The notes beneath the pieces were generated by a model. It saw nothing but the letters and a program-made list of their open reading frames with translations. It did not search any database and had not been told where the DNA came from. Shown one piece after another: positions 1,486 to 27,479 of a stretch of 64,000 bases of DNA (its first letter is position 1; each line of letters starts with the position of its first letter). The DNA is taken from the NCBI RefSeq assembly GCF_044324875.1, contig NZ_CP172185.1. The stretch is one strand, 5' to 3'. Both the position numbers and the translations under genes were made by a program. The stretch is from Escherichia coli. GTDB lineage: Bacteria; Pseudomonadota; Gammaproteobacteria; Enterobacterales; Enterobacteriaceae.

Positions 1486-1491
1486 ATTCAA

Positions 1492-4364: not shown

Positions 4365-5158
4365 TAAACAAAACTCACAGGTGCAGCACCCGCCGGATGC
4401 GGCAGAATACCCATCGGGATGCCATAAATCATTTCGAGGGTTTCGCCGCGCATAATTTCCGCAGGCGTTCCCTGAGCAATCATTTCACCACCGCGCAGGG
4501 CGACCAGATAATCACAGTAGCGCGCCGCCATATTGATATCGTGCAACACGGCAATGACCGTCAGGCCACGCTCCTGACTTAAACGGTGCACCAGCGCCAG
4601 CACATCAACCTGGTGGGCGATATCCAGCGCCGAGGTCGGTTCGTCGAGCAACAGACAACGGCTATCCTGCGCCACCAGCATGGCGATCCACGCCCGCTGA
4701 CGTTCGCCGCCAGAGAGACTATCAACCAGCCGATGCGCCAGCGGTTTTAAGCCAACCAGCGAGATAGCTTCCTCGACTTTTTCGCGATCTGCCGCCCCAA
4801 AGCGCCCCAGCGCGCCATGCCACGGGTAACGACCAATCGCCACCAGTTCACGCACGGTCATCCCTTCTGCCGGAGGAAGCTGCTGCGGTAAATAAGCCAC
4901 TTTGCGGGCAAACGCTTTGCTGCTCCAGCTTTCCAGCGGCTGGGCATCAAGAAGAATTTCGCCTTCCGACGGTGGCTGATGACGGCCAAGCATTTTGAGC
5001 AGAGTGGATTTACCAGAACCGTTGTGACCAATCAGACCAGTCACTTTCCCGGCAGGAAAGGTTAACGACAGCGGATGCAAAAGCGTGCGCCCTGGCACAC
5101 GAAAGGAGATATTACGCAGTGCAAAAGTGGTATCGGAATGATTCGTGTATTCCTGCAT
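4361..5158 (-). CDS. fhuC: ferric hydroxamate ABC transporter ATPase
   Basis: Walker A GHNGSGKST and signature LSGGERQR; start placed at internal MQEYTNHSD (265 aa), not the ORF-track 5281 extension. Confidence 0.93.
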   Translation of the reverse strand: MQEYTNHSDTTFALRNISFRVPGRTLLHPLSLTFPAGKVTGLIGHNGSGKSTLLKMLGRHQPPSEGEILLDAQPLESWSSKAFARKVAYLPQQLPPAEGMTVRELVAIGRYPWHGALGRFGAADREKVEEAISLVGLKPLAHRLVDSLSGGERQRAWIAMLVAQDSRCLLLDEPTSALDIAHQVDVLALVHRLSQERGLTVIAVLHDINMAARYCDYLVALRGGEMIAQGTPAEIMRGETLEMIYGIPMGILPHPAGAAPVSFVY

Positions 5159-5208
5159 AACAGCCAACTTGTGAAGCGGGCACGGAAATCCGTGCCCCAA
5201 AAGAGAAA

Positions 5209-7398
5209 TTAGAAGCGGAAGGTTGCGGTTGCAACGACCTGACGTTCTGCGCCCCAGAAGCAGCCATAGGTCTGGAAGCAACTGGCAACATACTCACGAT
5301 CGAGCAAATTGTTGACGTTCACAGCAAGGCTGGATCCCGCCATACCAAAGCGTGCCAGATCATATTTTACAACAGCATCCATTACAGCTGCGCTACCCAC
5401 TTTAAAAGTGTTTGCCGGATCACCATAGCTGGAACCAATAAAACGACCACCTGTTCCCAATGTTAAACCAGAAAGCGGCCCTTCATTGAAGGTATAATCC
5501 CCCCAGAGAGATGCCATATGCTCCGGTACTTGTTCTGGAGTTTTACCTTTGAGATTGGTGTCTTTGGTGTATTCCGCATCGGTGTAGGTATAAGAAGCCG
5601 TCAAGTTAATATTGGCATTTAACGCCGCTTTAGCTTCAAGTTCCACACCACGAGCGCGAATCTCACCTGCCGGGACTTGCGCTAATGGGTTTGTTGGGTC
5701 TGCTGTCAGGTTATTTGTTTTCGTCAATTGATAGACTGCGCCCGTAACAACGACCGGCATATCATTCGGAACATATTTTACGCCAGCTTCATACTGTTCA
5801 CCTTTCGATGGCTTATAGGAAACGCGCGGGTTGCTCCACAGATCGAAAGCACTCGGTTCAAAGGACTGGCTATAGCTAAAGTAAGGTGAAATACCATTAT
5901 CGAATAAGTAATTTACACCACCGCGCCAGGTGAACTGATGATCATTGCGCTCAATATAACCTTCAGTCGGCGTATAAGAGTTTTCACGAACAGTGGTCGC
6001 TTGCTTAGACCAATCGTAGCGTCCTCCCAGAGTGAATACCCATTTATTCCATTCCGCCTGATCCTGAACATAAATACCTGTTTGTTTGCTTTCATTCATC
6101 TGGTATGGCTCTGCGCTACCAAATGCAAAGTATTCAGGATGGTATTTGTTATAAAGATCGATGGATGGTGCAGATCCAAAGCTGGCATTGATATCATTGC
6201 GCATCCGCATGAAGTCTACCCCTGTCAGCAAAGTATGCCCGACGTCACCTGTAGCAAACTTACTTTCAAGTTGGGTATCAACGCTAAAGTTTTGTAGACG
6301 CTCATTATCCACCACTGTCCCGCGGTTTAGGGTATGACCATCGCTGGCAATCCCTGTGCCATAAACACTTTTCTGTGAGGTTTTCATTTCACTGAAACGC
6401 AGATTCTGACGCACGGTGAAGGTGTCATTAAAACCATGTTCAAAACTATATCCCACCATTTTCTGGTTACGGGAGTATGTATTATTCGATGCACCTTCAT
6501 TGAAATCAGTCGGTAGACGCTTACCATTAGGCAATGGCTCAACGGTCCCCTCTTTCGGCAACCAACCGTAATAACCCGTTTCTGGTTCGTTCTGAAAATA
6601 GGACAGGAAAGTAAAATTGGTTTTGTCGTCTGGACGCCATGAGAATGATGGAGCAATGGTATAACGCTGAGATTCAGAGTTTTTCTGCTGTTCGTTTGTT
6701 GAGCGTGCGAGGCCAGTCAAACGGTAGGAGAACTCACCGTTATCATCCAGCGCATCACTGAAATCGAATCCGGTCTGAAACAGATTATCCGTCCCCATTT
6801 TAAACTGAATTTCTTTCAGGGGTTCAGTTGTCGGACGCTTACTCACCATAGAAATAATCCCACCAGGATTACTTTTCCCATAGAGAACAGACGTCGGCCC
6901 GCGCATCAGTTCAACCCTCTCGAGCATGTAAGGATCAATCACAGCATCGTTATAAAAGTTGCCCTGAAGTTTTAGTCCATCAAGGTAATTATTTTGATTC
7001 AGACCAACAGATGAGAAACCACGAATAATAACAAAATCATATGTATTAGAAGCACCACGACTGCTAACCGTAACGCCAGGTGTATAACCTAATGCTTCTT
7101 TTACAGACTGAAATTGATGCATCTGCATCTCTTCATTTGTCACAACCGAAATAGACTGCGGCGTTTTTTCAATTGGTGTATCCGTTTTAGTCGCAGTAGC
7201 AGAGTGCTTCGCCGCAATAGTTGCAGCTGGCCCCCATGCGCTTTCTTGCGGCGCAGGTGCAGCGGTAACGGTGATAGTGTCTTCTTTCGGTTCAACCGCT
7301 GCCTGTGCATAAACAGACATGCCGCTAACCGCTGTGGCTACTACAACTGCGATTTTACGCAGTGAGTGTTTTGGCTGAGCAGTTTTGGAACGCGCCAT
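5209..7398 (-). CDS. fhuA: TonB-dependent ferrichrome outer-membrane receptor / phage receptor
   Basis: 729-aa ORF; signal peptide MARSKTAQPKHSLRKIAVVVATAVSGMSVYAQA, TonB box DTITV, C-terminal ATATFRF; Fur box upstream. Confidence 0.92.
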   Translation of the reverse strand: MARSKTAQPKHSLRKIAVVVATAVSGMSVYAQAAVEPKEDTITVTAAPAPQESAWGPAATIAAKHSATATKTDTPIEKTPQSISVVTNEEMQMHQFQSVKEALGYTPGVTVSSRGASNTYDFVIIRGFSSVGLNQNNYLDGLKLQGNFYNDAVIDPYMLERVELMRGPTSVLYGKSNPGGIISMVSKRPTTEPLKEIQFKMGTDNLFQTGFDFSDALDDNGEFSYRLTGLARSTNEQQKNSESQRYTIAPSFSWRPDDKTNFTFLSYFQNEPETGYYGWLPKEGTVEPLPNGKRLPTDFNEGASNNTYSRNQKMVGYSFEHGFNDTFTVRQNLRFSEMKTSQKSVYGTGIASDGHTLNRGTVVDNERLQNFSVDTQLESKFATGDVGHTLLTGVDFMRMRNDINASFGSAPSIDLYNKYHPEYFAFGSAEPYQMNESKQTGIYVQDQAEWNKWVFTLGGRYDWSKQATTVRENSYTPTEGYIERNDHQFTWRGGVNYLFDNGISPYFSYSQSFEPSAFDLWSNPRVSYKPSKGEQYEAGVKYVPNDMPVVVTGAVYQLTKTNNLTADPTNPLAQVPAGEIRARGVELEAKAALNANINLTASYTYTDAEYTKDTNLKGKTPEQVPEHMASLWGDYTFNEGPLSGLTLGTGGRFIGSSYGDPANTFKVGSAAVMDAVVKYDLARFGMAGSSLAVNVNNLLDREYVASCFQTYGCFWGAERQVVATATFRF

Positions 7399-7419
7399 TG
7401 GTATATCTCTGATGTAAAG

Positions 7420-7452
7420 TGAATGATAACGTAAACGAGAATGATTATTATA
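7420..7452 (-). promoter_or_regulatory. Fur box in fhuA promoter
   Basis: gtgaatgataacgtaaacgagaatgattatta resembles the Fur consensus GATAATGATAATCATTATC, 20-50 bp upstream of the fhuA start. Confidence 0.6.
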
Positions 7453-7617
7453 AAGATAAGATAATATTCGAAACGCTGGCGGGTTCGCAAGCGGTACGCA
7501 ATCTGAGCGTTCCTGAAGGGTTAATAAACAACCAGATGAAAAGAAAGGGTTAATACTTTGGGTGGGATGTTATTTTACCGGATGGCTACTCGCCATCCGG
7601 TATGTCACGCTTAGACG

Positions 7618-10149
7618 TTAATTACTACCAAACATATCCTTGATCCAACCGGCTACACCGTCGCTGTCTTTCTGCTCTTGCTGAGCAGGTTGCTGTTGCG
7701 GCTGTTGCTGCGGCTGAGAAGACTGATCAAACGGATTGCCTGACGGTTGCTGCTGCATCTCACTCTGCTGGCACAGCGATTGCGGATCGCTGGTCCAGAC
7801 CGGCAAGACACGCATACCACCGCTGCAAACAAAGTTACCGTCGTAGTCCACGCCCATATCTGCAATATCTTCTGGCGGAACAAGATTCAGCGGCGTTGGC
7901 GTCTGGTTAGCCAGATAACGCTGATAAATCGACATTGCCCCACTGGCACCATACAGTTTGGTCGGTTGGTTGTTATCACGGCCTACCCAGGTGATGGTCA
8001 CCGTGCTGCCGTCAATGCCCGCAAACCAGGTATCTACGTTATTGTTGGTAGTCCCTGTTTTCCCTGCCAGATGCAGGTTCGGGTATTTCGCCCCAAGCTG
8101 ACGACCCGTACCACGTTGTACCACCTGCTGCATGGTCCATAGTGTCAGATATGCCGCCTGCGCCGGAACCGCGCGTTCTGCCTGCGGGAAGCTCTGATAC
8201 AGCACCTTGCCATCTTCTGCGATGACTGAACGCAGCGCAGAAAGCGGTGCACGGTTACCACCGCTGGCGATGGTCTGGAATGCCTGCGCCACTTCGATTG
8301 GCGTTAAGTTCAACGCCCCCAGCAGCATTGCCGGAACCGGATGCAGCTGATCTTTCGGTACGCCCAGTTTAATCCAGGTCTCCGTAACCGCAGGCAGCCC
8401 CAGCGCCATCCCCAGATTCACCGTCGGCACGTTCATCGAACGGGTCAACGCATCCACCAGCATCACTCTGCCGCTTTCGCTATAACGACGGTCATCGTTC
8501 TGCGGTGACCAGACCTGGCCATTCGGCTGACGTAGCGCGATTGGCGCATCCGCAATCCACGTGTTCAGGCGATAGATTTTCGGCTGGCTTAAGGCCGTCA
8601 GATAAGTCGCTGGTTTTGCAAGAGAACCAATCGAACGACGCGCCTGCATCGCACGGTTGTAGCCCGCAAACTGCGGCTCAGAACCACCGACCATCGCACG
8701 AACTTCACCACTAAAGCGGTCGACGACCACAATCGCAGTTTCAAGATCGCTCAACTTACGCTGTTTCTTCAGTGCCGGAATGCCTTCCACGGCGGCTTTT
8801 TCTGCCGCGTCCTGGGCCACCGAGTCAAAGGTAGTGAAGATCTTCACGCCGGAGAGATCTTTTACCTTATCGCCCAGTTTTGCCTGCAGCTCCTGACGCA
8901 CCAGTTGCATAAAGGCTGGCTGAGGAGAGATCACCCCACCGCGCGGCTGAACACCCAGCGGACGTGCACTCAACATGTCATAGAGTTCTTGATCAATAAT
9001 CTGTTGCTGTTGCAGCAAACGTAGCACCAGGTTACGTCGCTCCAGCGCCAGTTTCGGGTTACGCCACGGGTTGTAGATGGACGCCCCTTTCACCATACCC
9101 ACCAACAGCGCCTGCTGATCGAGGCTCAATTCTTCTACCGGACGACCAAAGTAATACAAGCTCGCCAGCGGGAAGCCGCGGATTTCGTTGTCGCCGCTCT
9201 GACCGAGATACACCTCGTTCATATACAGCTCAAGAATACGGTCTTTACTGTAACGCGCGTCCATGATCAGCGCCATGTAAGCTTCGTTCGCTTTACGCCA
9301 GTAAGAGCGCTCGCTGGAGAGGAACAGGTTTTTCACCAGCTGTTGCGTCAGCGTACTCGCACCCTGCACCGTGCGTCCGGCTGTCAGGTTTGCCAGCACC
9401 GCACGCCCAATTGAGTAGAGGCTGATCCCATCATGCTCGTAGAAATGACGGTCTTCTGTCGCCAGCAAAGTATCCACCAACAAATCAGGGAAACCACTGC
9501 GCGGCACAAACAGACGCTGCTCACCGTTTGGTGAGGAGATCATAGTGATCAGGCGCGGATCAAGACGGAAGAAACCAAACTGACGGTTGTTCTCCATATT
9601 GACGATCGTCGCCAGATGATCGCCATCAAAGGTCAGACGCGCACGCACCTGCCCTTCTTTACTGTCCGGGAAATCAAACGGACGGCGGATCATCTCAATG
9701 CTGTTGGCCTGCACGGTAAATTCGCCAGGACGGGTCATTTTCGACACCTGACGATACTGGGTCGCCTCCAGCAGCTTCACCATCTCGTTCTTGCTGATGG
9801 TCATGTCTGGCTCAAGGTTGACCATCCGGCCATAAACTGCCGCGGGCAGTTGCCAGACCTTACCATCAATACGGCTGCGAATTTTTTGATCGAGATAAAC
9901 GCCGTAAATGGCGATCAGCACGGCAAAAACGATAGCCAGTTTTAGCAGCAGCCATAGCCAGCCGCGTTTGCCACGAGGCTTACGCCCTTTGCCTTTGCCC
10001 TTTCCTTTGCGCGGCATCGGTTCTTCATCCTCATAGTCATCATAATCGTCGTAATCGTCATCTTCGTAACGACGACGGCTTACCTTTTGTTTGACCGGAC
10101 GCGTCGGTTTCCCTTTGCGTCCAATTGGCTCGCGGTCATTCCCGGCCAT
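7618..10149 (-). CDS. mrcB: penicillin-binding protein 1B (bifunctional transglycosylase/transpeptidase)
   Basis: Start at [10 protein letters not shown] inside the 848-aa ORF; acidic [13 protein letters not shown] tract, TM anchor, SxxK STLTQQ and KTG motifs. Confidence 0.95.
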
Positions 10150-10242
10150 GCTTTTTCTCCGCAATATTCAGGCGCAAAAGCCCGATTTTCTGTTCTTCTG
10201 TTGCAAGACAGAAGAAGATATCTCTCAAATTTGCTTTGGTCT

Positions 10243-15650: not shown

Positions 15651-17048
15651 ATTTTTACCCGAGTCGCTAATTTTTGCCGCAAGGTGCTAAGCCGCGAGGA
15701 AAGCGAGGCTGAACAGGCAGTCGCCCGTCCACAGGTGACGGTGATCCCGCGTGAGCAGCATGCTATTTCCCGCAAAGATATCAGTGAAAATGCCCTGAAG
15801 GTAATGTACAGGCTCAATAAAGCGGGATACGAAGCCTGGCTGGTTGGCGGCGGCGTGCGCGACCTGTTACTTGGCAAAAAGCCGAAAGATTTTGACGTAA
15901 CCACTAACGCCACGCCTGAGCAGGTGCGCAAACTGTTCCGTAACTGCCGCCTGGTGGGTCGCCGTTTCCGTCTGGCTCATGTGATGTTTGGCCCGGAGAT
16001 TATCGAAGTTGCGACCTTCCGTGGACACCACGAAGGTAACATCAGCGACCGCACGACCTCCCAACGCGGGCAAAACGGCATGTTGCTGCGCGACAACATT
16101 TTCGGCTCCATCGAAGAAGACGCCCAGCGCCGCGATTTCACTATCAACAGCCTGTATTACAGCGTGGCAGATTTTACCGTCCGTGATTACGTTGGCGGCA
16201 TGAAGGATCTGAAAGACGGCGTTATCCGTCTGATTGGTAACCCGGAAACGCGCTACCGTGAAGATCCGGTACGGATGCTGCGCGCGGTACGTTTTGCCGC
16301 CAAATTGGGTATGCGTATCAGTCCTGAAACCGCAGAACCGATCCCTCGCCTGGCTACCCTGCTGAACGATATTCCACCGGCACGTCTGTTTGAAGAATCT
16401 TTGAAACTGCTACAAGCGGGCTACGGTTACGAAACCTATAAGCTGCTGTGTGAATATCATCTGTTCCAGCCGCTGTTCCCGACCATTACCCGCTACTTCA
16501 CGGAAAATGGCGACAGCCCGATGGAGCGGATCATTGAACAGGTGCTGAAGAATACCGATACGCGTATCCATAACGATATGCGCGTGAACCCGGCGTTCCT
16601 GTTTGCCGCCATGTTCTGGTACCCACTGCTGGAGACGGCACAGAAGATCGCCCAGGAAAGCGGCCTGACCTATCACGACGCTTTCGCGCTGGCGATGAAC
16701 GACGTGCTGGACGAAGCCTGCCGTTCTCTGGCGATCCCGAAACGTCTGACGACGTTAACCCGCGATATCTGGCAGTTGCAGTTGCGTATGTCCCGACGTC
16801 AGGGTAAACGCGCCTGGAAACTGCTGGAGCATCCTAAGTTCCGTGCGGCTTATGACCTGTTGGCCTTGCGAGCTGAAGTTGAACGTAACGCTGAACTGCA
16901 GCGTCTTGTGAAATGGTGGGGGGAGTTCCAGGTTTCCGCGCCACCAGATCAAAAAGGGATGCTCAACGAGCTGGATGAAGAGCCGTCACCGCGTCGCCGT
17001 TCTCGTCGTCCACGCAAACGCGCACCGCGTCGTGAGGGTACCGCATGA
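15651..17048 (+). CDS. pcnB: poly(A) polymerase I
   Basis: Nucleotidyltransferase GGGVRD...DFD motifs; known non-canonical AUU start at IFTRVANF (465 aa); 4-bp overlap with folK. Confidence 0.9.
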
Positions 17049-17524
17049 CAGTGGCGTATATTGCCATAGGCAGCAATCTGGCCTCTCCGCTGGAGCAGGT
17101 CAATGCTGCCCTGAAAGCATTAGGCGATATCCCTGAAAGCCACATTCTTGCCGTTTCTTCGTTTTACCGCACCCCACCGCTGGGGCCGCAAGATCAACCC
17201 GATTACTTAAACGCAGCCGTGGCGCTGGAAACCTCTCTTGCACCTGAAGAGTTACTCAACCACACACAACGTATTGAGTTACAACAAGGTCGCGTCCGTA
17301 AAGCGGAACGCTGGGGGCCGCGCACACTGGATCTCGACATCATGCTATTTGGTAATGAAGTAATAAATACCGAACGCCTGACCGTTCCGCACTACGATAT
17401 GAAGAATCGTGGATTTATGCTGTGGCCGCTGTTTGAAATTGCGCCGGAGCTGGTGTTTCCTGATGGAACAGCATTAGGAAATTTATTAAAAATAAATAAA
17501 TTTCATGAATTAAACAAATGGTGA
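17045..17524 (+). CDS. folK: 2-amino-4-hydroxy-6-hydroxymethyldihydropteridine pyrophosphokinase
   Basis: 159-aa [15 protein letters not shown] matching recalled HPPK. Confidence 0.95.
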
Positions 17525-17872
17525 TTTAATGATTTCATGAATATAAATAAATTCCGAAAAATAGCCTTACCCCATTGCAATTAATATATTCCCTAAGCTA
17601 CAACCATAATTAATATTATATACCCCGTTAACACCTTCCGCCTCACATACAATATTTTTCCCGCTTTGTACATTAAGTTTTACTTAAAGATGAATTAAGT
17701 GGATATATAAATTTAAATATGCACAATATCCCACTTGGTGATGAACAGATGTTACATTCAGTAAATCTTCACATTCATCATTAACAAACCAATCTATTTT
17801 TCTCTATCGGGGTTCTTTGTCTGAAAGCACCCGATTGTAGTTAAACTCATGGAATATAATTCAAGGATTATT
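17525..17872 (+). promoter_or_regulatory. AT-rich leader upstream of the yad fimbrial operon
   Basis: About 350 bp of strongly AT-rich non-coding sequence before the first fimbrial gene; typical of silenced chaperone-usher promoters. Confidence 0.4.
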
Positions 17873-18445
17873 ATGTCTAAAAAATTAGGTTTTGCCCTGT
17901 CTGGTCTTATGCTGGCAATGGTTGCAGGTACTGCTTCTGCTGATATGGACGGTGGTCAGATTAACATCAGTGGCTTGGTTAGCGATAACACCTGTGAAAC
18001 AAAAGTTGATGGCGGCAAGCAAGATGGCCTGGTTCTTCTGCAAACTGCAACGGTTGCTGAAATTACCGCTGGTGTATCTGAAACTGCTGTCGGTGCCAAA
18101 GCGAAACCGTTTAGCATTACTGTAGACTGCAGCAAAGCGACTCCGGGAGGCCAACCGACTCTGACATTCGGTTCAGTTTTCTTTGGTAACAGTCGTGGCA
18201 CTTTGAATAACGATATGTCCATCACCACCCCGTCATCTGGTGTGAATATCGCCCTGCACAACATTGACGGCACCACTGTTAAACAAGTCAAAATTAATAA
18301 TGCATCTGATGCTTACACTAAAGCATTAACCAATAATGTTGCAGTCTTTGACTTCAAAGCCTCCTATGTTCGTGAAGACGACTCAACACCAGCAACGGCT
18401 GGTTATGTAAGAACCAACACAGCTTACACCATCACCTACAATTAA
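17873..18445 (+). CDS. yadN: fimbrial major subunit-like protein
   Basis: Signal peptide [23 protein letters not shown], about 190 aa, conserved C-terminal beta-strand (YTITYN); AAGGA Shine-Dalgarno 7 nt upstream. Confidence 0.8.
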
Positions 18446-18537
18446 GTTATTCGTTGGTGATTTAAATTACTACAAGGGTGCGACACCTATTGTCGCCCCC
18501 TTGTCTTGAAAACAATTCATGTCATGGATGGTATATT

Positions 18538-19269
18538 TTGTTAAATAAAAAGAATATTGTCGCATTATGTGTTGCCAGTAGTATGGCATTTAGTATGCCT
18601 GTTATGGCTGATATTGTTATTTCCGGTACACGCGTCATTTATAAAAGTGATCAAAAAAGCGTTAGCGTACGCCTGGAGAATAAAGGCAATAGCCATCTGT
18701 TAGTACAAAGCTGGCTGGATACCGGTGACGATAACGCTGAGCCGGGAAGCATTAATGTACCATTTACGGCAACACCTCCCGTTTCACGTATTGATGCTAA
18801 ACGCGGTCAAACCATCAAATTGATGTATACCGGCAGCACCGTACTCCCCAGCGACAAAGAAAGCGTATTCTGGTTTAACGTGCTGGAAGTGCCCCCAAAA
18901 CCAGATGCTTCAAAAGTAGAGAATCAGAGCCTGTTACAACTGGCTTTCCGTACCCGTATCAAGCTGTTCTATCGTCCGGCAGGATTAAACGGTAACCCGT
19001 CTGAAGCACCATTAGCCCTGAAATGGAAATGGGCTGAAGGGAAGTCTGGCCTGAGTGTATATAACCCAACACCTTATTACGTCTCTTTCAACAGTGCAGA
19101 GTTAATCGCTGGCGGTAAGTCGAACCCGCTCAATGTAAAAATGGTTGCACCGAAAAGCGAAGAGATTTTCACCATAAGCGGTTCAGGCGGGAAAGCAACG
19201 TCAGGAAAGGTACATTTCTCCGCGATTAATGATTTTGGCGGCGCAATTGAAGGCGATGTCAATTTGTAA
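18538..19269 (+). CDS. ecpD: periplasmic fimbrial chaperone (PapD-like)
   Basis: PapD-family sequence (DIVISGTRVIYKSDQKSVSVRLENKG...); start uncertain, placed at TTG before the signal peptide LNKKNIVALCVASSMAFSMPVMA. Confidence 0.8.
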   Translation: MLNKKNIVALCVASSMAFSMPVMADIVISGTRVIYKSDQKSVSVRLENKGNSHLLVQSWLDTGDDNAEPGSINVPFTATPPVSRIDAKRGQTIKLMYTGSTVLPSDKESVFWFNVLEVPPKPDASKVENQSLLQLAFRTRIKLFYRPAGLNGNPSEAPLALKWKWAEGKSGLSVYNPTPYYVSFNSAELIAGGKSNPLNVKMVAPKSEEIFTISGSGGKATSGKVHFSAINDFGGAIEGDVNL

Positions 19270-19303
19270 GACCAGGGACCTTATGCAGCAGGAAGCCAAT
19301 GTA

Positions 19304-21904
19304 ATGAAAACAAAGACATCGACTAAACGCCATAATCTTACGCGTATCGCAATGTATTGCTCAATCATGTATAGCGGCGCTACCATCGGAGCCGAAAGTG
19401 TTGAGTATGACCCTACCTTTTTAATGGGTGGCAACGCTTCCAGTATTGATGTTAGCCGCTATAGCGATGGCAACCCGACTTTGCCTGGTGTTTACGATGT
19501 TAGCATCTATGTTAACGAGCAACCTGTTGCTAACCTGGAGATCCCCTTTATCGCGATCCCCGATAAAAAGAATGCTCAAGCCTGTATTACCCTGAAAAAT
19601 CTACTACAACTGCATATCAAGACACCCCCGGCAGACGAGGAAAATACTATCCTTCTTCCACGGGATGAAACGCTTGGCAACTGTCTTGACCTGTCGTTAG
19701 CCATACCTAAATCCTCAGTGAACTATGACCCCTCTGAACAACGTCTGGATATCAATGTTCCCCAGGCATGGGTGATGAAGAATTATCAAAACTATGTGGA
19801 CCCATCACTTTGGGAAAATGGCATTAACGCGGCTACGCTGTCTTATAACATCAACGCTTATCGCAGTGAAAATTCAAATTATACAAATGATAGCGTTTAT
19901 ACATCGTTCAATGGTGGCGTCAATTTAGGGGCCTGGCGTCTGCGTAGCAGCGGTAACTATAGCTGGAGAAACGACGCGGGAAGCAATGTTGAGTTTATGA
20001 ATCGCTACGTCCAGCGCGACATTACCGCTATCCGCTCGCAGCTCATTATGGGGGAATCCTACACCACAGGTGAAACGTTCGACTCCGTTAGTATCCGCGG
20101 CATTCGCTTATACAGCGACAGCCGAATGCTGCCGCCTGTATTGGCAAACTTCGCCCCGACAATTCGTGGTGTAGCAAATACTAACGCCAAAGTCAGCATC
20201 ACCCAGAGTGGATACAAAATTTATGAAACCACTGTTCCACCGGGACCTTTTGTCATTGATGATCTCAGCCCGTCAGGGTATGGCAGCGATCTTATCGTAA
20301 CCATTGAAGAAGCTGATGGCAGCAAGCGTACATTTTCTCAGCCATTTTCTTCAGTAATTCAAATGCTGCGCCCGGGTGTTTCTCGCTGGGATATCAGCGG
20401 CGGGCAAATTAATAAAGACGACTTGCATCATGAACCAAACTTACTACAAGCGACCTATTACCGTGGTTTAAGTAACCTGTTCACTGGCTATACTGGTTTT
20501 CAGGTCACAGATAATCATTATGCTGCAGGTTTACTTGGCATTGGGATGAATACTTCAGTCGGCGCAATTTCCTTCGATGTCACCCACTCCAGTGTCGATA
20601 TACCGGATGATAAAAGGTACCAGGGGCAAAGCTATCGCATCTCCTGGAACAAATTTTTTGACCTGACAGATACATCATTAAACATCGCGGCTTACCGCTA
20701 CTCCACGCAGGACTATCTGGGCCTGAATGATGCATTAACACTTATTGATGAAGTTGAACATCCCACTCAGGATCTTGATCCCAAAACTATGCGCAACTAC
20801 GGGCGCATGAAAAACCAGTTCACCGTAAGCATTAACCAACCGCTACGCTTTGGGAAGGATGATTATGGCTCGTTCTATACCTCTGGAAGCTGGTCTGATT
20901 ACTGGGGGGGCAGTAAGAGCCGTAGCAACTATTCGGTCGGCTACAGTAACAGCGCTTCATGGGGAAGCTACAGTATCAGCGCTCAACGATCCTGGGATGA
21001 GTACAGCCAAACAGAAAACAGTATTTACCTCAGCTTTTCGATACCTATCGAAAAGCTGATGGGTACGGAGCACCGTGATTCCGGTTTCCAAAGTATTGAT
21101 ACACAACTTAGTACCAATATGGATGGTAATAATCAGTTCAACATGAGCAGTAGCGGTTATAGCAACGATAACCGCGTGAGCTATAGCGTGAACGCGGGTT
21201 ATGGGATGAATAAAACCGGCAAAGATCTCAGCAACATCGGGGGTTATGCCAGCTATGAATCGCCATGGGGAACGCTAGCTGGGTCAGTCTCTGCTACCAG
21301 CGATAATAACCGCCAGTACTCCGTTAATACAGATGGTGGATTTGTGTTGCACAGCGGAGGACTGACGTTCAGCAACGACAGTTTCAGTGATAATGACACC
21401 ATTGCTTTGGTTAAAGCACCGGGTGCAAAAGGGGCGCGTATTAACTACGGCAACAATACCGTTGACCGTTGGGGATATGGCGTAACCAGTGCTCTTTCAC
21501 CATACCAGGAAAACAAAATTGCTCTGGACACTGAAAACCTGGAAAACGACATCGAAATGAAGAGCACCAGTACGGTTGCCGTACCACGCCAGGGCTCGGT
21601 TATCTTTGCTGGTTTTGAAACCAATCAGGGACAATCTGCGATTATGAATATCAAACGCAGTGACGGAAAAGGTATCCCCTTCGCCGCCGATATTCATGAT
21701 GAAACAAATGCAATCATTGGCAACGTTGGGCAGGGCGGGCAGGCATTTGTTCGCGGTATTCAGCAGCAGGGCACGATAAAAATCACCTGGCTGGAAGCCA
21801 GCATGCCCAAAACCTGTATTGCGCAGTACCAGCAACCCAATGTGACATCGGAGAAAATCCAGCAAACGATTATTCTCAATAATATTCTTTGCCAGCTCCA
21901 ATAA
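19304..21904 (+). CDS. htrE: fimbrial outer-membrane usher
   Basis: 866 aa from MKTKTSTKRHNLTRIAMY with AGGAAG Shine-Dalgarno; usher family size and sequence. Confidence 0.88.
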   Translation: MKTKTSTKRHNLTRIAMYCSIMYSGATIGAESVEYDPTFLMGGNASSIDVSRYSDGNPTLPGVYDVSIYVNEQPVANLEIPFIAIPDKKNAQACITLKNLLQLHIKTPPADEENTILLPRDETLGNCLDLSLAIPKSSVNYDPSEQRLDINVPQAWVMKNYQNYVDPSLWENGINAATLSYNINAYRSENSNYTNDSVYTSFNGGVNLGAWRLRSSGNYSWRNDAGSNVEFMNRYVQRDITAIRSQLIMGESYTTGETFDSVSIRGIRLYSDSRMLPPVLANFAPTIRGVANTNAKVSITQSGYKIYETTVPPGPFVIDDLSPSGYGSDLIVTIEEADGSKRTFSQPFSSVIQMLRPGVSRWDISGGQINKDDLHHEPNLLQATYYRGLSNLFTGYTGFQVTDNHYAAGLLGIGMNTSVGAISFDVTHSSVDIPDDKRYQGQSYRISWNKFFDLTDTSLNIAAYRYSTQDYLGLNDALTLIDEVEHPTQDLDPKTMRNYGRMKNQFTVSINQPLRFGKDDYGSFYTSGSWSDYWGGSKSRSNYSVGYSNSASWGSYSISAQRSWDEYSQTENSIYLSFSIPIEKLMGTEHRDSGFQSIDTQLSTNMDGNNQFNMSSSGYSNDNRVSYSVNAGYGMNKTGKDLSNIGGYASYESPWGTLAGSVSATSDNNRQYSVNTDGGFVLHSGGLTFSNDSFSDNDTIALVKAPGAKGARINYGNNTVDRWGYGVTSALSPYQENKIALDTENLENDIEMKSTSTVAVPRQGSVIFAGFETNQGQSAIMNIKRSDGKGIPFAADIHDETNAIIGNVGQGGQAFVRGIQQQGTIKITWLEASMPKTCIAQYQQPNVTSEKIQQTIILNNILCQLQ

Positions 21905-21916
21905 TACGAAAGAGAG

Positions 21917-22483
21917 ATGACAATGATAAAAAACACACGGTATAAAATAGTACTCCTGGCAGGCATTTTTTTACTGCCCGGCGCACTGGCACAAGATATT
22001 AATGTTGATTTTGTTGCCACAATCAAAGGCACGACATGTAATATCACTCTGGAAGGGACACGCGTCACCGCTGATGGCAATAATCAGTACACGCTACGGA
22101 TATTAAATGTTGCTCTGGATAAAATCATAAACAAGATGCCAGAAGCACAAGCCGACTTTAAACTGGTCGCTAATTGTGATGGTAACATAGGCAAGATTAC
22201 GACATCGCTGGCAGGGAATCCTTCAGTAGAGTTACCCTATTTAATTTCTCCATTAACTTCAGATAATTCATCCACCACAGAATATATTGCTATGGGGATT
22301 AAACTTCGAAATGCCTCTGACACTGAATTTATTCCCCCAGATGGTTCTAAAAATATTTCCTGGGGAGAGGGATTAACAAAACCGGAACTTGAGATGACGG
22401 TAGCACTTCGCGAAACCCGACCAGGTTCAGGAAGAGCAGGTAGTTTTAAAGCACTTGCGACATTCAATTTCACCTACGAATAA
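21917..22483 (+). CDS. yadM: fimbrial minor subunit-like protein
   Basis: 188 aa with signal peptide, directly downstream of the usher. Confidence 0.65.
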   Translation: MTMIKNTRYKIVLLAGIFLLPGALAQDINVDFVATIKGTTCNITLEGTRVTADGNNQYTLRILNVALDKIINKMPEAQADFKLVANCDGNIGKITTSLAGNPSVELPYLISPLTSDNSSTTEYIAMGIKLRNASDTEFIPPDGSKNISWGEGLTKPELEMTVALRETRPGSGRAGSFKALATFNFTYE

Positions 22484-22496
22484 AAGGATAATAATA

Positions 22497-23096
22497 ATGC
22501 AGATGAAATCATTACATTATGGGATATTTGCAAGCATTACTCTGAGCTTATTATTATTCAGCACGTTTTCTATAGCCATCACGGATAACATTGGCCTAAA
22601 CGTTATGACCACTGTTGAAAACAGAACTTGTCAAAGCGAAATCAGCAACCAGGGGTTGGTTAATCTTGGCACTGTTGGAGTGGGATATTTTGCCAGTAAT
22701 GTTAGTGCGGAAGATAATTATCCAGGCGGAAAGACCTTTACTGTGACAGTAAAAGATTGCCCCTCCGCTGGCACAACATCAAGCCAGTTGCATATAGAAT
22801 TTAAACCTGTCAGTGGTGTAATGGCCACTGGTAGCCAACAGATATTCGCCAATAACCATGTCGGCGGTGCACAAAATGTAGGAATCGTGATTTTTAGCCA
22901 AAATAATCAGTCATCGGACACAGTGAATGTGCTGTCACCAACAGGGCAGTTTCGCACAGTCTGGCCAGTTGCCTCTGCAAACATGAATAATTCATCGTGG
23001 CAATTTTATACACGAATGCAAAAAATTGATCCGTTACTTCCCGTTGGGGCAGGATTTGTCACCAGCAATGTATTAGTTGATATTTATTATCAATAA
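22497..23096 (+). CDS. fimbrial minor subunit-like protein (yadL/yadK-like)
   Basis: About 199 aa from MQMKSLHYGIFASITLSLLLFSTFSIA; AGGA Shine-Dalgarno; cannot tell which K-12 paralog it corresponds to. Confidence 0.6.
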   Translation: MQMKSLHYGIFASITLSLLLFSTFSIAITDNIGLNVMTTVENRTCQSEISNQGLVNLGTVGVGYFASNVSAEDNYPGGKTFTVTVKDCPSAGTTSSQLHIEFKPVSGVMATGSQQIFANNHVGGAQNVGIVIFSQNNQSSDTVNVLSPTGQFRTVWPVASANMNNSSWQFYTRMQKIDPLLPVGAGFVTSNVLVDIYYQ

Positions 23097-23147
23097 ATGC
23101 TAGACATAACGAATCTACAAATATTATTTTTTCAAAGGAGTGATAAG

Positions 23148-24398
23148 ATGAAGTCAGCGTTCCGATACTTTCTTTTTTTATGGATTATCACAGCCAGCAT
23201 TAATAATGTAAATGCTGGAAATCTTACTTTTATGGTCGGTGACGATGCTGGCGTAGGAAACCTTAATGGCCCATCAGGCGATAAACTAATATCATTTGCC
23301 TATCCGGTTGGTGGAGTAAACAATATTGTATTTTATAATCCAACATCCGCCACACCGACCAATGCACAAATAAAATTATATTGGAGTGAACTGGACACAT
23401 CAAGTAGCCGTGGGTTTGTATATTGTACTTCAAAAAGTGGTTCCAGCGGTATGCCAATTACTGTCCGGCATAACATGGTGGACTCAGGAAAAATGGCAGA
23501 TGGGCACAGATTATATGAAACTAATGTAACCGGTCTATATTATACGTTAATGCTCAATAGATTCTGGTCGTATGAACTTCGCTCAAGCTCTCCAGATATA
23601 TACGTTGGAGACGATGGCTGGCACACTGTACAATTTTCTATTACGGGTGATTATATACGAGGTCAATGTAATACTGCCAGGTATCAAGCAGTCGGAGGTC
23701 TTTTGCACGATGCCACGGTGGAATTCTATACCGACAGCAGTTTTAACCCTGCTCCAAATACTAACGTGCAATTAAAACATACTGGTGATTATTTGTATTC
23801 ATTCGCAAATGAAGGGCCAGGGATTCCAAATGTAAGTGCATCTAAGATGCTAAAAATCAATTTTAATTTAACAGACATCAATATCCAACTGCCAACATGC
23901 TTTACGTCTATCCTTTTGGGTGAGAGCGTAACGCGATCAACCGTAAATCTCGGGGAATATACTGTTGGACAGATCACCTCAGATTCTGCAACACCTGTTA
24001 ATTTTCAGATCTCGCTACAAAATTGTGTTCGTATAAGCAGTATTAAAACAAAACTAAAATCTAATGTAGTAGGAGTGAATAATCCTCTGTTGCTTGGTAA
24101 TACTTTGACAGGAACCGATGATGCAAAAGGTGCCGGAGTACTTATTGAAGGGTTACCCAACAGCAAAAATTCACAAAATTTCACGCTTAAGCCAAATGAT
24201 GAGACATCAAGCTATAACGATGCTGAAGATGATCCTGGAGAAAACAATGGAATTTATAACCCAGATTATCCTAATGCCAACGGTCGTACTACAACCCAGG
24301 ACCTGAAATTTCAGGCAACATTAAAACGCGATGGTAATGCAACTGTGAAACCCGGCGGATTTAAGGCTACCAGTACATTCCAGGTCACCTACGAGTAA
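23148..24398 (+). CDS. yadC: fimbrial tip adhesin-like protein
   Basis: 416 aa from MKSAFRYFLFLW with AGGAG Shine-Dalgarno; signal peptide; last gene of the operon. Confidence 0.7.
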   Translation: MKSAFRYFLFLWIITASINNVNAGNLTFMVGDDAGVGNLNGPSGDKLISFAYPVGGVNNIVFYNPTSATPTNAQIKLYWSELDTSSSRGFVYCTSKSGSSGMPITVRHNMVDSGKMADGHRLYETNVTGLYYTLMLNRFWSYELRSSSPDIYVGDDGWHTVQFSITGDYIRGQCNTARYQAVGGLLHDATVEFYTDSSFNPAPNTNVQLKHTGDYLYSFANEGPGIPNVSASKMLKINFNLTDINIQLPTCFTSILLGESVTRSTVNLGEYTVGQITSDSATPVNFQISLQNCVRISSIKTKLKSNVVGVNNPLLLGNTLTGTDDAKGAGVLIEGLPNSKNSQNFTLKPNDETSSYNDAEDDPGENNGIYNPDYPNANGRTTTQDLKFQATLKRDGNATVKPGGFKATSTFQVTYE

Positions 24399-24409
24399 CA
24401 GGTTTAACC

Positions 24410-24432
24410 GCACCGCCATCATCTGGCGGTGC
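24410..24432 (+). terminator. hairpin after the yad operon
   Basis: gcaccgcc-atcatct-ggcggtgc, 12 nt after the yadC stop. Confidence 0.45.
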
Positions 24433-24511
24433 TGTAATTGATAAATCATTGCCCCCACCAATGTGACTGATAAAATGCCAGACAGCACGACATTACTTAT
24501 CAGGATACGTT

Positions 24512-25306
24512 ATGAAACCAACCACTATTGCTTCATTGCAAAAATGCAAACAAGAAAAAAAACGTTTCGCGACCATCACCGCTTACGACTATAGCTTCGC
24601 AAAACTGTTTGCCGATGAAGGGCTTAACGTCATGCTGGTTGGCGATTCACTGGGCATGACGGTTCAGGGGCATGACTCCACTCTGCCAGTTACCGTTGCC
24701 GATATCGCCTACCACACTGCTGCTGTACGTCGCGGTGCGCCAAACTGTCTGCTGCTGGCTGATCTGCCGTTTATGGCGTATGCCACACCAGAACAAGCCT
24801 TTGAAAACGCCGCGACTGTCATGCGTGCCGGTGCCAACATGGTCAAAATTGAGGGCGGTGAGTGGCTGGTAGAAACCGTACAAATGCTGACCGAACGTGC
24901 CGTTCCGGTTTGTGGTCATTTAGGCCTAACCCCACAGTCAGTAAATATTTTCGGTGGCTACAAAGTCCAGGGGCGCGGCGATGAAGCGGCCGATCGACTG
25001 CTCAGCGATGCATTAGCTTTAGAAGCTGCTGGGGCACAACTGCTGGTACTGGAGTGCGTGCCGGTTGAACTGGCAAAACGTATTACCGAAGCACTGGCGA
25101 TCCCGGTTATTGGCATTGGCGCAGGCAACGTCACTGACGGGCAAATTCTCGTGATGCACGACGCATTCGGCATTACCGGCGGTCATATTCCTAAATTCGC
25201 CAAAAATTTCCTCGCCGAAACGGGCGACATCCGCGCGGCTGTGCGGCAGTATATGGCTGAAGTGGAGTCCGGCGTTTATCCGGGCGAAGAACACAGTTTC
25301 CATTAA
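24512..25306 (+). CDS. panB: 3-methyl-2-oxobutanoate hydroxymethyltransferase
   Basis: 264-aa ORF matching recalled PanB. Confidence 0.95.
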
Positions 25307-25317
25307 GGAGTGACGTT

Positions 25318-26169
25318 GTGTTAATTATCGAAACCCTGCCGCTGCTGCGTCAGCAAATCCGCCGCCTGCGTATGGAAGGTAAGCGCGTGGCGCTGGTGCC
25401 CACCATGGGTAACCTGCACGACGGCCATATGAAGCTGGTCGACGAAGCCAAAGCCCGCGCCGATGTGGTCGTCGTCAGTATTTTCGTTAACCCGATGCAG
25501 TTCGACCGCCCGGAAGATCTGGCACGTTATCCACGGACCTTGCAAGAGGACTGCGAAAAGCTGAACAAGCGCAAAGTGGATTTAGTTTTCGCCCCTTCGG
25601 TAAAAGAGATCTACCCGAACGGTACAGAAACCCACACCTATGTTGATGTTCCCGGTCTTTCTACCATGCTGGAAGGTGCCAGCCGTCCGGGACATTTTCG
25701 CGGCGTTTCGACTATCGTCAGCAAGCTGTTCAATCTGGTCCAGCCGGACATCGCCTGCTTCGGTGAAAAAGATTTTCAGCAACTGGCGCTGATCCGCAAA
25801 ATGGTTGCTGATATGGGCTTTGATATTGAGATTGTCGGTGTGCCAATTATGCGCGCCAAAGACGGTCTGGCGCTGAGTTCCCGTAACGGTTATCTGACGG
25901 CGGAACAACGCAAAATTGCGCCTGGTCTGTACAAGGTTTTAAGTTCGATTGCCGACAAATTGCAGGCTGGCGAACGGGATCTCGATGAAATTATTACTAT
26001 TGCCGGGCAAGAACTGAATGAAAAAGGCTTCCGCGCCGATGATATTCAGATTCGTGATGCCGACACCTTGCTGGAGGTCTCTGAAAACAGCAAACGTGCA
26101 GTGATTCTGGTAGCCGCCTGGCTTGGCGATGCCCGCCTGATCGACAACAAAATAGTCGAGCTGGTGTAA
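25318..26169 (+). CDS. panC: pantothenate synthetase
   Basis: 283 aa, GTG start, [37 protein letters not shown] (HIGH-type motif). Confidence 0.95.
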
Positions 26170-26250
26170 TATTTAACTGGCGCTACGGCTGATGGCGCCA
26201 GTTATTCATTGCCACGTCATCTGTAAGAAATTATTCATATCGTAGACAAC

Positions 26251-26466
26251 TTAGTTAGAGTTAATTAGCTTATCAACCTCTGTAAGAGATAAAGTTGCCA
26301 TCTCTGCAACGTCTTCCCGAGACATTCCTTTACTCAGAAGACGCTGGGCCAGCCTTACCTTCCGGAGTCCCTCTTTATATCCCTTCTGAAATCCCTTCTG
26401 AAATCCCTTCTCTTCAAACCACTGCGCCAACGTCTGCCTGGTTTCTCTCCGTGTCTTTATTTCCAT
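26251..26466 (-). CDS. stand-alone Rpn C-terminal-tail paralog (RpnS-like small protein)
   Basis: 71-aa ORF; LAQWFEE...QRLLSKGMSREDVAEMA...EVDKLI closely parallels the last 70 aa of the adjacent rpnC product; created by an 85-bp tandem duplication. Confidence 0.5.
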   Translation of the reverse strand: MEIKTRRETRQTLAQWFEEKGFQKGFQKGYKEGLRKVRLAQRLLSKGMSREDVAEMATLSLTEVDKLINSN

Positions 26467-26636
26467 ATATTCCCTTAATTATCTGGTCAGTTAACAATAA
26501 CAATTATCTGGCTATAACTGATAATGCAGATAACTTAGCTAATCAGCTTATCAACCTCAGCAAGGGGTAAATTTGCCATCTCTGCAACGTCTTCCCGAGA
26601 CATTCCTTTACTCAGAAGACGCTGGGCGAATTCCTG
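26265..26636. repeat. tandem duplication of the rpnC 3' end (two ~85-bp near-identical copies, period ~280 bp)
   Basis: Copies at about 26265-26349 and 26544-26636 share the run ttgccatctctgcaacgtcttcccgagacattcctttactcagaagacgctgggc. Confidence 0.85.
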
Positions 26637-27479
26637 ACTTACTTCCTGTGTTACTTCCTGTATTACCTCTTGTCTTACCTCTTGTCTTACCTCTTGTCTT
26701 ACCTCCTGTCTTCCTTCCTGTCTTCCCCTCTCTTCAAACCACTGCGCCAGCGTCATCATAGACTTCCCTCCCGTTTCCCTGTCTCTCAGCACACCATAAA
26801 ACAAATCCGCTTGTTCAGTATGACCGCGTTGCAGCATATAGTTTTGCATGGCAACTAACTGACTTCCGCTAGTGTACCCTTCGTCAATCAGCGTGACCAG
26901 TTGCTCCAGCAATAACATTAAGTCGCGCTGGCGAATATGTTTTTGCAGTAGTTCGAGAATCGCAATCCGCCGATGTTGCATGATTTCGTCATCCGGTGTG
27001 ATGGTGATATCCACCAGCGGGAAAGGGTTGTTGTAAACGCGTCGCGCCAGCTCCGGCGAGTAAAACATATCAAACCAACACATTGAGAGCGGATAAGGTG
27101 TGGCCTCGCCCTGATAAAACAGAATCGGCACCACCAGCGGCAGCTTATCGTGATCCGCCTCCAGATGCCGGTGCATGGCAGCAATAGAATAACGCATCAT
27201 GCGAAAGGCCATTTTCTTATCCGGCTTACTTTGGTGTTCAATCACCACATGCAAATAACCGGGATTACCCTGCATTTGTACGGAATAGAGTACGTCCGTG
27301 CTGTGCCCTTTCAGGCTTTCCTCAATAAAACTCCCCGACTCAAGATGCAGCGTGTCGAGGTCACACAGTTCGCGTAGCTCCGCTGGCAAATGGATATCCA
27401 GAAAGTCACGAGCCGTTTCCGCATGCATTAAAAATTGTTTAAATACCGCGTCATGCGGTGTGGTACTCGGTGCATCCAT
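26535..27479 (-). CDS. rpnC: recombination-promoting nuclease Rpn family (YhgA-like PD-(D/E)xK)
   Basis: 314-aa ORF at the K-12 yadD position between panC and panD; Rpn-family sequence with C-terminal repeat-containing tail. Confidence 0.8.
   Translation of the reverse strand: MDAPSTTPHDAVFKQFLMHAETARDFLDIHLPAELRELCDLDTLHLESGSFIEESLKGHSTDVLYSVQMQGNPGYLHVVIEHQSKPDKKMAFRMMRYSIAAMHRHLEADHDKLPLVVPILFYQGEATPYPLSMCWFDMFYSPELARRVYNNPFPLVDITITPDDEIMQHRRIAILELLQKHIRQRDLMLLLEQLVTLIDEGYTSGSQLVAMQNYMLQRGHTEQADLFYGVLRDRETGGKSMMTLAQWFEERGRQEGRQEVRQEVRQEVRQEVIQEVTQEVSQEFAQRLLSKGMSREDVAEMANLPLAEVDKLIS
26637..26726 (-). repeat. in-frame 12-bp tandem repeat tract within rpnC (RQEV units)
   Basis: About 7 units of tacctcttgtct and variants, encoding RQEVRQEVRQEV...; a second shorter tract (atcccttctgaa, KGFQ units) lies at 26379-26412 in the small ORF. 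Confidence 0.85.

Follow-up and report, generated by a model that had tools for sequence, protein, structure and literature searches.

Yad fimbriae are surface structures of the gamma-4 chaperone-usher type. In Escherichia coli K-12 and uropathogenic E. coli (UPEC) they are encoded between folK and panB, in the order yadN-yadV(ecpD)-htrE-yadM-yadL-yadK-yadC, and xylose-related binding has been reported for the K-12 adhesin YadC. Yad is the same fimbria as Salmonella Sta and counts as a core-associated type at a fixed locus (Wurpel 2013, PMC3559732). The genes are described in the literature as highly variable and of different lengths; the Yad fimbriae of O157:H7 Sakai have been expressed and imaged (Schulte et al., PMC7098969), and the genome paper of enteroaggregative E. 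coli (EAEC) 042 reports divergent fimbrial subunits, with operon architectures in a supplementary figure. A 2026 survey (PMC13245861) scored genomes as Yad-positive when they had an usher at least 80% identical to HtrE of EC958, and reported Yad to be lacking in phylogroup D. Here, we describe the Yad locus in a 64,000-nucleotide stretch of E. coli DNA (contig NZ_CP172185.1 of assembly GCF_044324875.1; hereafter the window), where the operon has six genes. We consider it very probable that the window carries a deeply diverged Yad/Sta gamma-4 allele (class II, see below) in which a single deletion fused yadL to yadK, encoding a fimbria with a hybrid adaptor pilin.

Results

Gene content of the operon

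Six co-directional chaperone-usher genes occupy positions 17873-24398 of the window (+ strand), bounded by folK (17045-17524) and panB (24512-25306); their coordinates are collected in Table 1, with gene starts as in the RefSeq annotation of strains CH4796 (99.8% identical) and 042. All six reading frames are intact, and complete Pfam domains of chaperone-usher systems are found in all six products. The chaperone has both PapD domains (PF00345 PapD_N, E=3.7e-43, and PF02753 PapD_C, E=2.7e-19, on 18538-19266), and the usher has its N-terminal, pore and C-terminal domains (PF13954 PapC_N; PF00577 Usher, E=2.7e-158; PF13953 PapC_C). Pilins of the PF00419 family account for the major pilin, both minor pilins and the C-terminus of the adhesin, to which the domain is confined (residues 264-416). 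A single protein accession for the major pilin is common to the window, 042 and CH4796. The first minor pilin aligns with K-12 YadM over its full length and groups with the M clade in the tree. The adhesin aligns with K-12 YadC over its full length as well (E=1e-115), with 42-43% identity in the N-terminal (lectin) part and 58-61% in the pilin part, and a good AAGGAG Shine-Dalgarno sequence stands upstream of its ATG at 23148.

At the same site, a K-12 derivative has yadN-yadV-htrE-yadM-yadL-yadK-yadC, with three minor pilins and YadC annotated at 416 aa. An initial sequence-only reading of this DNA had counted just two small pilin genes between usher and adhesin, and had set them against a K-12 trio of yadM, yadL and yadK. 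Both counts hold (the two genes encode 186 and 199 aa; the 188 aa given for the first corresponds to a start at ATG 21917 in place of the RefSeq-style start), and so does the length of 416 aa given for the adhesin, which is that of YadC in K-12 too. Its suspicion of a variant surface structure was also sound: the operon is a known type of fimbria in variant form, already generically annotated in hundreds of genomes. Two features had escaped it, namely that the whole operon, beyond its gene count, is deeply diverged, and that the 5' end of yadL persists, joined in frame to the body of yadK, rather than being plainly absent.

Mosaic ancestry of the second minor pilin

The product of the second minor pilin gene is a mosaic. 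Over residues 1-41, it is identical to K-12 YadL at 22 of 41 positions and to YadK at 6 of 39; over residues 42-199, it matches YadK at 94 of 157 positions and YadL at 31 of 152. The EC958 and CFT073 alleles give the same picture, the N-terminal part being 48-52% identical to YadL and 14-19% to YadK, and the remainder 56-60% identical to YadK and 19-21% to YadL. With the N-terminal segment taken as residues 1-41 or 1-44, informative sites divide 19:3 between L-type and K-type in that segment and 12:77 in the remainder (Fisher p=1.2e-10), and neighbour-joining trees of the segments place the N-terminal part in the L clade (78% bootstrap) and the body with class I YadK (100%). Genuine orthologues show no such L/K asymmetry across classes, and every other inspected YadK homologue has a K-type N-terminus.

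At the DNA level, the switch falls within GTTGAAA|ACAG (window ~22618-22620), between codons 41 and 42 and three codons before the first conserved cysteine. The 13-bp spacer 5' of the gene (AAGGATAATAATA) resembles the K-12 yadM-yadL spacer and is unlike the yadL-yadK spacer, and neither this spacer nor the 51-bp spacer on the other side of the gene holds a remnant of a third gene. Alignment to the K-12 region opens a single 623-nt gap in the window, near 22600-22700, exactly the distance in K-12 between yadL codon 43 and yadK codon 39 (480+26+117 = 623 nt). The mosaic, the spacer type and the 623-nt gap are all explained by one in-frame exchange between equivalent positions of tandem paralogues. 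Hence yadL is not simply missing: the second minor gene is an in-frame yadL'-'yadK hybrid.

A route in two events, in which gene conversion first put the 5' end of yadL on yadK and yadL was then precisely deleted, would leave a similar gene, and an N-terminal swap is known elsewhere, in a Salmonella K pilin that has an M-type N-terminus while M and L are both kept. This route is nevertheless very unlikely, as it requires two events with exactly matching end-points, whereas the yadM-yadL-type spacer and the missing 623 nt (one L-to-K register shift) are what a single unequal exchange predicts; moreover, neither the 5,426 complete E. coli genomes nor the protein collections yielded a conversion intermediate. 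Protein searches likewise returned no relatives of the hybrid between 58% and 99% identity.

Allele classes and polarity

Judged by their ushers, Yad alleles fall into three deep classes. Class I comprises K-12, EC958, CFT073 and IAI39, with ushers 87-97% identical among themselves (the IAI39 usher is a pseudogene, and this strain is placed in class I from its pilins and chaperone). Class II comprises the window and 042, with an usher 75% identical to class I, and class III is represented by O157 Sakai, with an usher 58-60% identical to classes I and II. Identity between the window and Salmonella ushers is 60-61%. The relatives nearest to the usher cluster (P0043) are E. coli HtrE proteins at 73-77%, then Salmonella at ~61%, and the protein search returned no usher relatives between 77% and 100% identity. 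A scan of species-representative genomes for ushers, made with overly specific peptide patterns, returned one E. coli locus (L010, usher 76%) and no outgroups; the Salmonella outgroup comes from the protein search and a contig look-up.

The Salmonella folK-panB operon has seven genes, three of them for minor pilins, of which the second and third are orthologous to YadL and YadK. Pilins of the L type are 44% identical between Salmonella and Sakai and 42% between K-12 and Sakai, and those of the K type 41% between Salmonella and Sakai, against 13-23% for cross-pairs; the usher tree rooted on Salmonella reads (Sakai,(window,(class I))). Because Sakai and Salmonella both retain M-L-K, this trio predates the Escherichia-Salmonella split and the two-minor state is derived. 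It is extremely improbable that two minor pilins are instead ancestral and that the K-12 type gained yadL by duplicating a yadK-like gene. YadL and YadK are indeed paralogues (~20% identity, same fold family), and a duplication did happen at some time, but the separate L and K orthologue groups in Sakai and Salmonella make it older than all E. coli allele classes; besides, the L and K of each of these lineages are not each other's closest relatives, and a pre-duplication gene would not be part L-like and part K-like.

The outgroups also provided observations of their own. The Sakai-type usher (L004:14329-21293) shows 58-59% identity to the remaining alleles of E. coli and a higher 64% to its Salmonella counterpart; the allele, which is present in ~417 genomes, including a subclass at 80-90% identity, is either as old as the genus split or imported. 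In Salmonella enterica, the K-type minor pilin (L011:10838-11422) has a K-type body and an N-terminus (…LLADTNVDFTATVQKDTC) of the M-pilin type (NVDFTATV), which groups with M N-termini in the segment tree. It is an independent swap of the N-terminus, with its donor strand, between tandem pilin genes, in this case without gene loss.

Distribution of the six-gene operon

Of the 5,426 complete E. coli genomes, 458 contain 80% or more of window 17000-25500. For 21905-24400, the same coverage is reached in 444, at 95.5-99.8% identity, and these 444 share the annotation pattern of two small pilin genes. In EAEC 042, a phylogroup D strain, the operon is laid out identically, and its major pilin, usher and both minor pilins go under the same protein accessions as those of the window. 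Identity to 042 is 98.6% in the core flanks and 99.7% in the yad block; the corresponding values for references of phylogroups A, B2, E and F, all of which have seven genes, are ~97% and ~70%. Names of carrier strains include 'ST38' and '405'. The variant had been called strain-specific in the sequence-only reading, wrongly so: it is a lineage-wide allele class, and the same architecture is found in EAEC 042, in ST38- and 405-labelled strains and in ~8% of complete E. coli genomes. That it could reflect a deletion in one strain, or an assembly error in one genome, is a practically negligible prospect, since 444-458 independent complete genomes, the finished reference 042 among them, have the same structure.

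Variant copies were also encountered: class II copies interrupted by insertion sequences (IS), namely IS3 or IS1 (H113, H141), a copy of the hybrid with a frameshift, listed as a hypothetical protein (P0008), and a class I YadK of 222 aa with an internal 24-residue tandem duplication (P0013).

Structure of the hybrid and selection on the operon

By the -3/-1 rule, the signal peptide of the hybrid is predicted to be cleaved after S-I-A27. The N-terminal extension that follows, I28-T44 (ITDNIGLNVMTTVENRT), has the same alternating I, L, V, T and V residues as K-12 YadL in the alignment. In an AlphaFold2 model of the hybrid (mean predicted local distance difference test score, pLDDT, 69), residues 1-42 lie below pLDDT 50, the first strand spans residues 46-49, and the body matches the structures of FimI, FimA, FimF and FimG. 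The model thus places the join at the boundary between a disordered N-terminal extension and a folded pilin body; with its junction there, the hybrid combines the export signal and donor strand of YadL with the immunoglobulin (Ig)-like body and acceptor groove of YadK. A sequence search of the PDB returned only MrkA for the hybrid (E=0.001) and nothing meaningful, hence no solved relative, for the adhesin.

The most divergent class II operon found, that of GF43, is 95.5% identical to the window over 21905-24400 and has the fusion too. The ratio of nonsynonymous to synonymous substitution rates (dN/dS) was computed between the window and GF43, the deepest split in class II. It is lowest in the hybrid (0.04; 19 synonymous and 3 nonsynonymous changes), followed by the usher (0.07; 22 and 6), the major pilin (0.08; 4 and 1) and the chaperone (0.08; 10 and 3), and is far higher in the adhesin (0.71; 23 and 57) and minor pilin 1 (0.80; 2 and 5). 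The presence of the fusion in GF43, together with the low dN/dS, shows that the fusion arose before the class diversified and that purifying selection has maintained it. Between the adhesins of the window and GF43 (L013:6746-7996), 41 of the 42 residue differences fall between residues 25 and 250, and the pilin domain is free of them; nucleotide identity is 89-94% over 22800-24000 and 98-99% elsewhere. The GF43 adhesin is a lectin-domain sub-allele that was probably introduced by recombination. Judging from these comparisons, the receptor-binding part of the adhesin keeps changing while the hybrid is conserved.

Chaperone start and regulatory features

The chaperone gene begins with ATT in the window (18535-18540), 042, CH4796 and GF43, that is, in all class II operons examined (L008, L001, L013), with TTG as the next codon. 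The aligned start is ATG in K-12, EC958, Sakai and Salmonella, and an upstream GGATGG Shine-Dalgarno-like motif is conserved. RefSeq annotations disagree on this start, with 228 aa (from ATG 18583) in CH4796 and GF43 and 244 aa (from ATT) in 042; the 228-aa version would be without a signal peptide.

Between the major pilin and chaperone genes, the region 18446-18537 folds at -27.8 kcal/mol (z=-3.6; 0 of 200 shuffles were as stable). The RNA hairpin that it contains could possibly serve in differential expression, by analogy with other chaperone-usher operons, as an intra-operon attenuator or an mRNA stabiliser. Two weak promoter-like sites lie upstream of the operon (17581-17610 and 17628-17656), and a promoter and terminator scan of the operon returned nothing above shuffled expectation. 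We make no promoter or regulatory claim because promoter-like sites are no commoner than in shuffles.

Divergence from K-12 and the flanks

Core genes of the window are ~97-98% identical to K-12, and identity collapses between a point ~125 bp before the end of folK and the beginning of panB. Nucleotide identity is ~70% in the first three genes and ~55% in the minor pilin and adhesin genes, and the operon block has a G+C content of 43%, its flanks one of 53-54%. Over the 3' end of folK (17400-17524), identity to K-12 is 77%. On the other side, panB and panC are 88-96% identical to K-12, well under the 97-98% background of nearby core genes; to 042, these flanking genes, folK 3' end included, are 99.7% identical. 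Such divergence of the flanks is the hitch-hiking pattern to be expected around a long-maintained or imported allele, and the haplotype reaches into housekeeping genes.

Elsewhere in the window, the fhuA-fhuB region (1490-10232, hemL-proximal side) forms another divergent block, 90-92% identical to K-12 against a background of ~97%. Between panC and rpnC (26240-27479; rpnC on the - strand), ~290 bp have no K-12 counterpart, including a small open reading frame of the RpnC/YadD family. The rpnC gene has a 12-nt tandem repeat of 7.8 copies at 26632-26724, which encodes QEVR repeats; another repeat with a 12-nt unit occupies 26379-26411.

Table 1. Features of the folK-panB operon and its surroundings (window positions; identities to K-12 are of proteins for the six genes)
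Feature	Position	Strand	Remarks
folK-major pilin intergenic, presumed regulatory region	17525-17872	+	only ~55-70% identical to K-12
Major pilin, YadN-like	17873-18445	+	190 aa; PF00419; 78% identical to K-12 YadN
RNA hairpin (CAAGGGUGCGACA...UGUCGCCCCCUUG) between major pilin and chaperone genes	18472-18504	+	
Periplasmic chaperone, YadV/EcpD-like	18535-19269 (start ATT 18535 or TTG 18538)	+	79% identical to K-12 YadV
Outer-membrane usher, HtrE-like	19304-21904	+	866 aa; 75% identical to K-12 HtrE
Minor pilin 1, YadM orthologue ('fimbrial protein')	21923-22483	+	186 aa; PF00419; 56% identical to K-12 YadM
Minor pilin 2, yadL'-'yadK hybrid ('fimbrial-like protein')	22497-23096	+	199 aa; PF00419; 55% identical to K-12 YadK
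Hybrid 5' part, yadL-derived	22497-22619	+	codons 1-41: signal peptide and N-terminal donor strand
Hybrid 3' part, yadK-derived	22620-23096	+	codons 42-199: Ig-like pilin body
Two-domain tip adhesin, YadC-like ('fimbrial-like adhesin')	23148-24398	+	416 aa; 48% identical to K-12 YadC
panB-panC flank	24512-26169	+	92.4-96.2% identical to six non-D reference genomes (K-12 94.5%); 99.7% to 042

Discussion

How could a six-gene operon have arisen at a locus that otherwise holds seven? We propose that the class II block sits at the ancestral folK-panB site, where it may have been inherited or exchanged whole via homologous recombination in the flanks, and that the ancestral operon would have encoded three minor pilins, ordered M-L-K. 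One in-frame deletion of ~620 bp, running from a point in yadL to the equivalent point in its tandem paralogue yadK, would then have joined the two genes in an event resembling a Lepore-type unequal crossover, at the short shared GTNNAAA three codons before the first conserved cysteine. Besides the major pilin, the chaperone and the usher, the operon would thus supply the fimbria with a YadM-like pilin, a single hybrid adaptor and an adhesin of two domains that has diverged strongly. The difference in gene count would thereby find a mechanistic explanation, in-frame fusion at the boundary between donor strand and pilin body, and not plain loss. No description of a yadL-yadK fusion was found in the literature searched, the scope of which did not extend to the subscription papers on Yad (Larsonneur 2016; Korea 2010), so that an earlier description is possible.

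The fusion bears directly on how the tip is assembled. In type 1 and P pili, the N-terminal extension of a subunit fills the groove of the previously assembled subunit (donor-strand exchange), and subunit order in both type 1 (Fim) and P (Pap) pili mirrors the operon. In the hybrid, the strand comes from L and the groove from K; the groove of L and the strand of K have been lost. Donor-strand exchange would build the hybrid into the fibre where the two original subunits stood, in a fimbria that is presumably functional: an ordinary chaperone-usher fimbria with a tip one adaptor shorter. Tentatively, and as something possible rather than probable, we suggest that the discarded L groove and K strand are mutual partners, so that the hybrid keeps both outer interfaces in a tip shortened by one subunit. 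If the lost parts are partners, the order in ordinary Yad fimbriae would be adhesin-YadL-YadK-YadM, the reverse of the operon-mirrored order of type 1 and P pili. With the alternative order, adhesin-K-L-M, the strand of the hybrid would fit its own groove and the hybrid would self-polymerise into a new tip fibrillum; two non-cognate contacts would then be needed for its links with the adhesin and YadM. The strong purifying selection seen in the hybrid, taken with retention of the adhesin, mildly favours the adhesin-L-K-M order. Either outcome would give a direct genetic handle on Yad tip architecture, the hybrid being a ready-made natural test of donor-strand specificity and subunit order in Yad fimbriae.

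Several points weigh against this interpretation. As to ancestry, the N-terminal segment is just 41 residues long and its tree support is moderate (78%), and the deletion end-points are inferred from homologues that are 50-60% identical, because no pre-fusion class II operon was found (blastn over the 5,426 genomes; protein searches with the hybrid and the usher). As to lineage, the allele appears to be a phylogroup D type, an assignment which rests on 042, flank identity, strain names and the published figure for class I Yad in phylogroup D (5%). As to function, the literature describes yad of K-12 as cryptic when grown in the laboratory, IS elements or frameshifts disrupt some class II copies, and the loss of the chaperone ATG, which is class-wide, could limit or abolish assembly. 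On these functional points, one could see in the operon a decaying relic without function, and in the fusion a tolerated damage. We consider this unlikely: six frames are intact with full-length domains in ~444 genomes, dN/dS stays low across the deepest split of the class in the hybrid as in the major pilin, chaperone and usher, and the deletion keeps the frame and coincides with a module boundary.

Deep divergence at this locus has consequences for how Yad is counted. Compared with EC958 HtrE, the class II usher is 75% and the class III usher ~60% identical, both below the 80% cutoff of the 2026 survey; phylogroups D and E were scored Yad-negative there because this threshold misses class II and III ushers. 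Phylogroup D, and likewise E with its Sakai allele, are thus not devoid of Yad and have deeply diverged alleles at the same locus. This matters for Yad prevalence figures, for adhesin typing tools and for anti-adhesin strategies aimed at YadC. Taken with the Salmonella K pilin, the fusion may point to donor-strand shuffling between tandem pilin genes as a recurrent way of rewiring fimbrial tips.

How does the window compare with the systems already described? Usher phylogeny and locus position, on which Wurpel 2013 based orthology, make its usher an orthologue of HtrE/StaC, although the seven genes and three minor pilins of Yad/Sta are not found in it. The closest system is Yad of K-12 and UPEC, with the same folK-panB site, gene order and domain content, and the best homologue of each window gene is the corresponding yad gene of K-12 and UPEC. 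The window differs from it in having six genes, not seven, in a single hybrid in place of yadL and yadK, and in the ATT/TTG start of the chaperone; identities are 75-79% for the major pilin, chaperone and usher, ~55% for the minor pilins and 48% for the adhesin. Yad of O157:H7 Sakai (ECs0139-ECs0145) belongs to the same locus and family as another deeply diverged allele, yet it has seven genes with separate L and K, its usher is 58-60% identical to that of the window, and its adhesin (369 aa) has no similarity to the window adhesin detectable by BLASTP. Sta of Salmonella occupies the same folK-panB position with a seven-gene plan and orthologues of M, L and K, and its usher is ~60% identical to that of the window; it keeps three minor pilins, and its own K pilin with an M-type N-terminus represents a different swap. 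Outside fimbriae, the nearest parallel is the Lepore-type hybrid of the delta and beta globins, which takes its 5' part from the upstream gene of a tandem pair and its 3' part from the downstream gene; the stretch between them drops out without breaking the frame, leaving one gene fewer. Unlike Lepore globin, the yadL'-'yadK hybrid belongs to a bacterial operon, with its join at a functional module boundary and a product that is under purifying selection rather than pathological.

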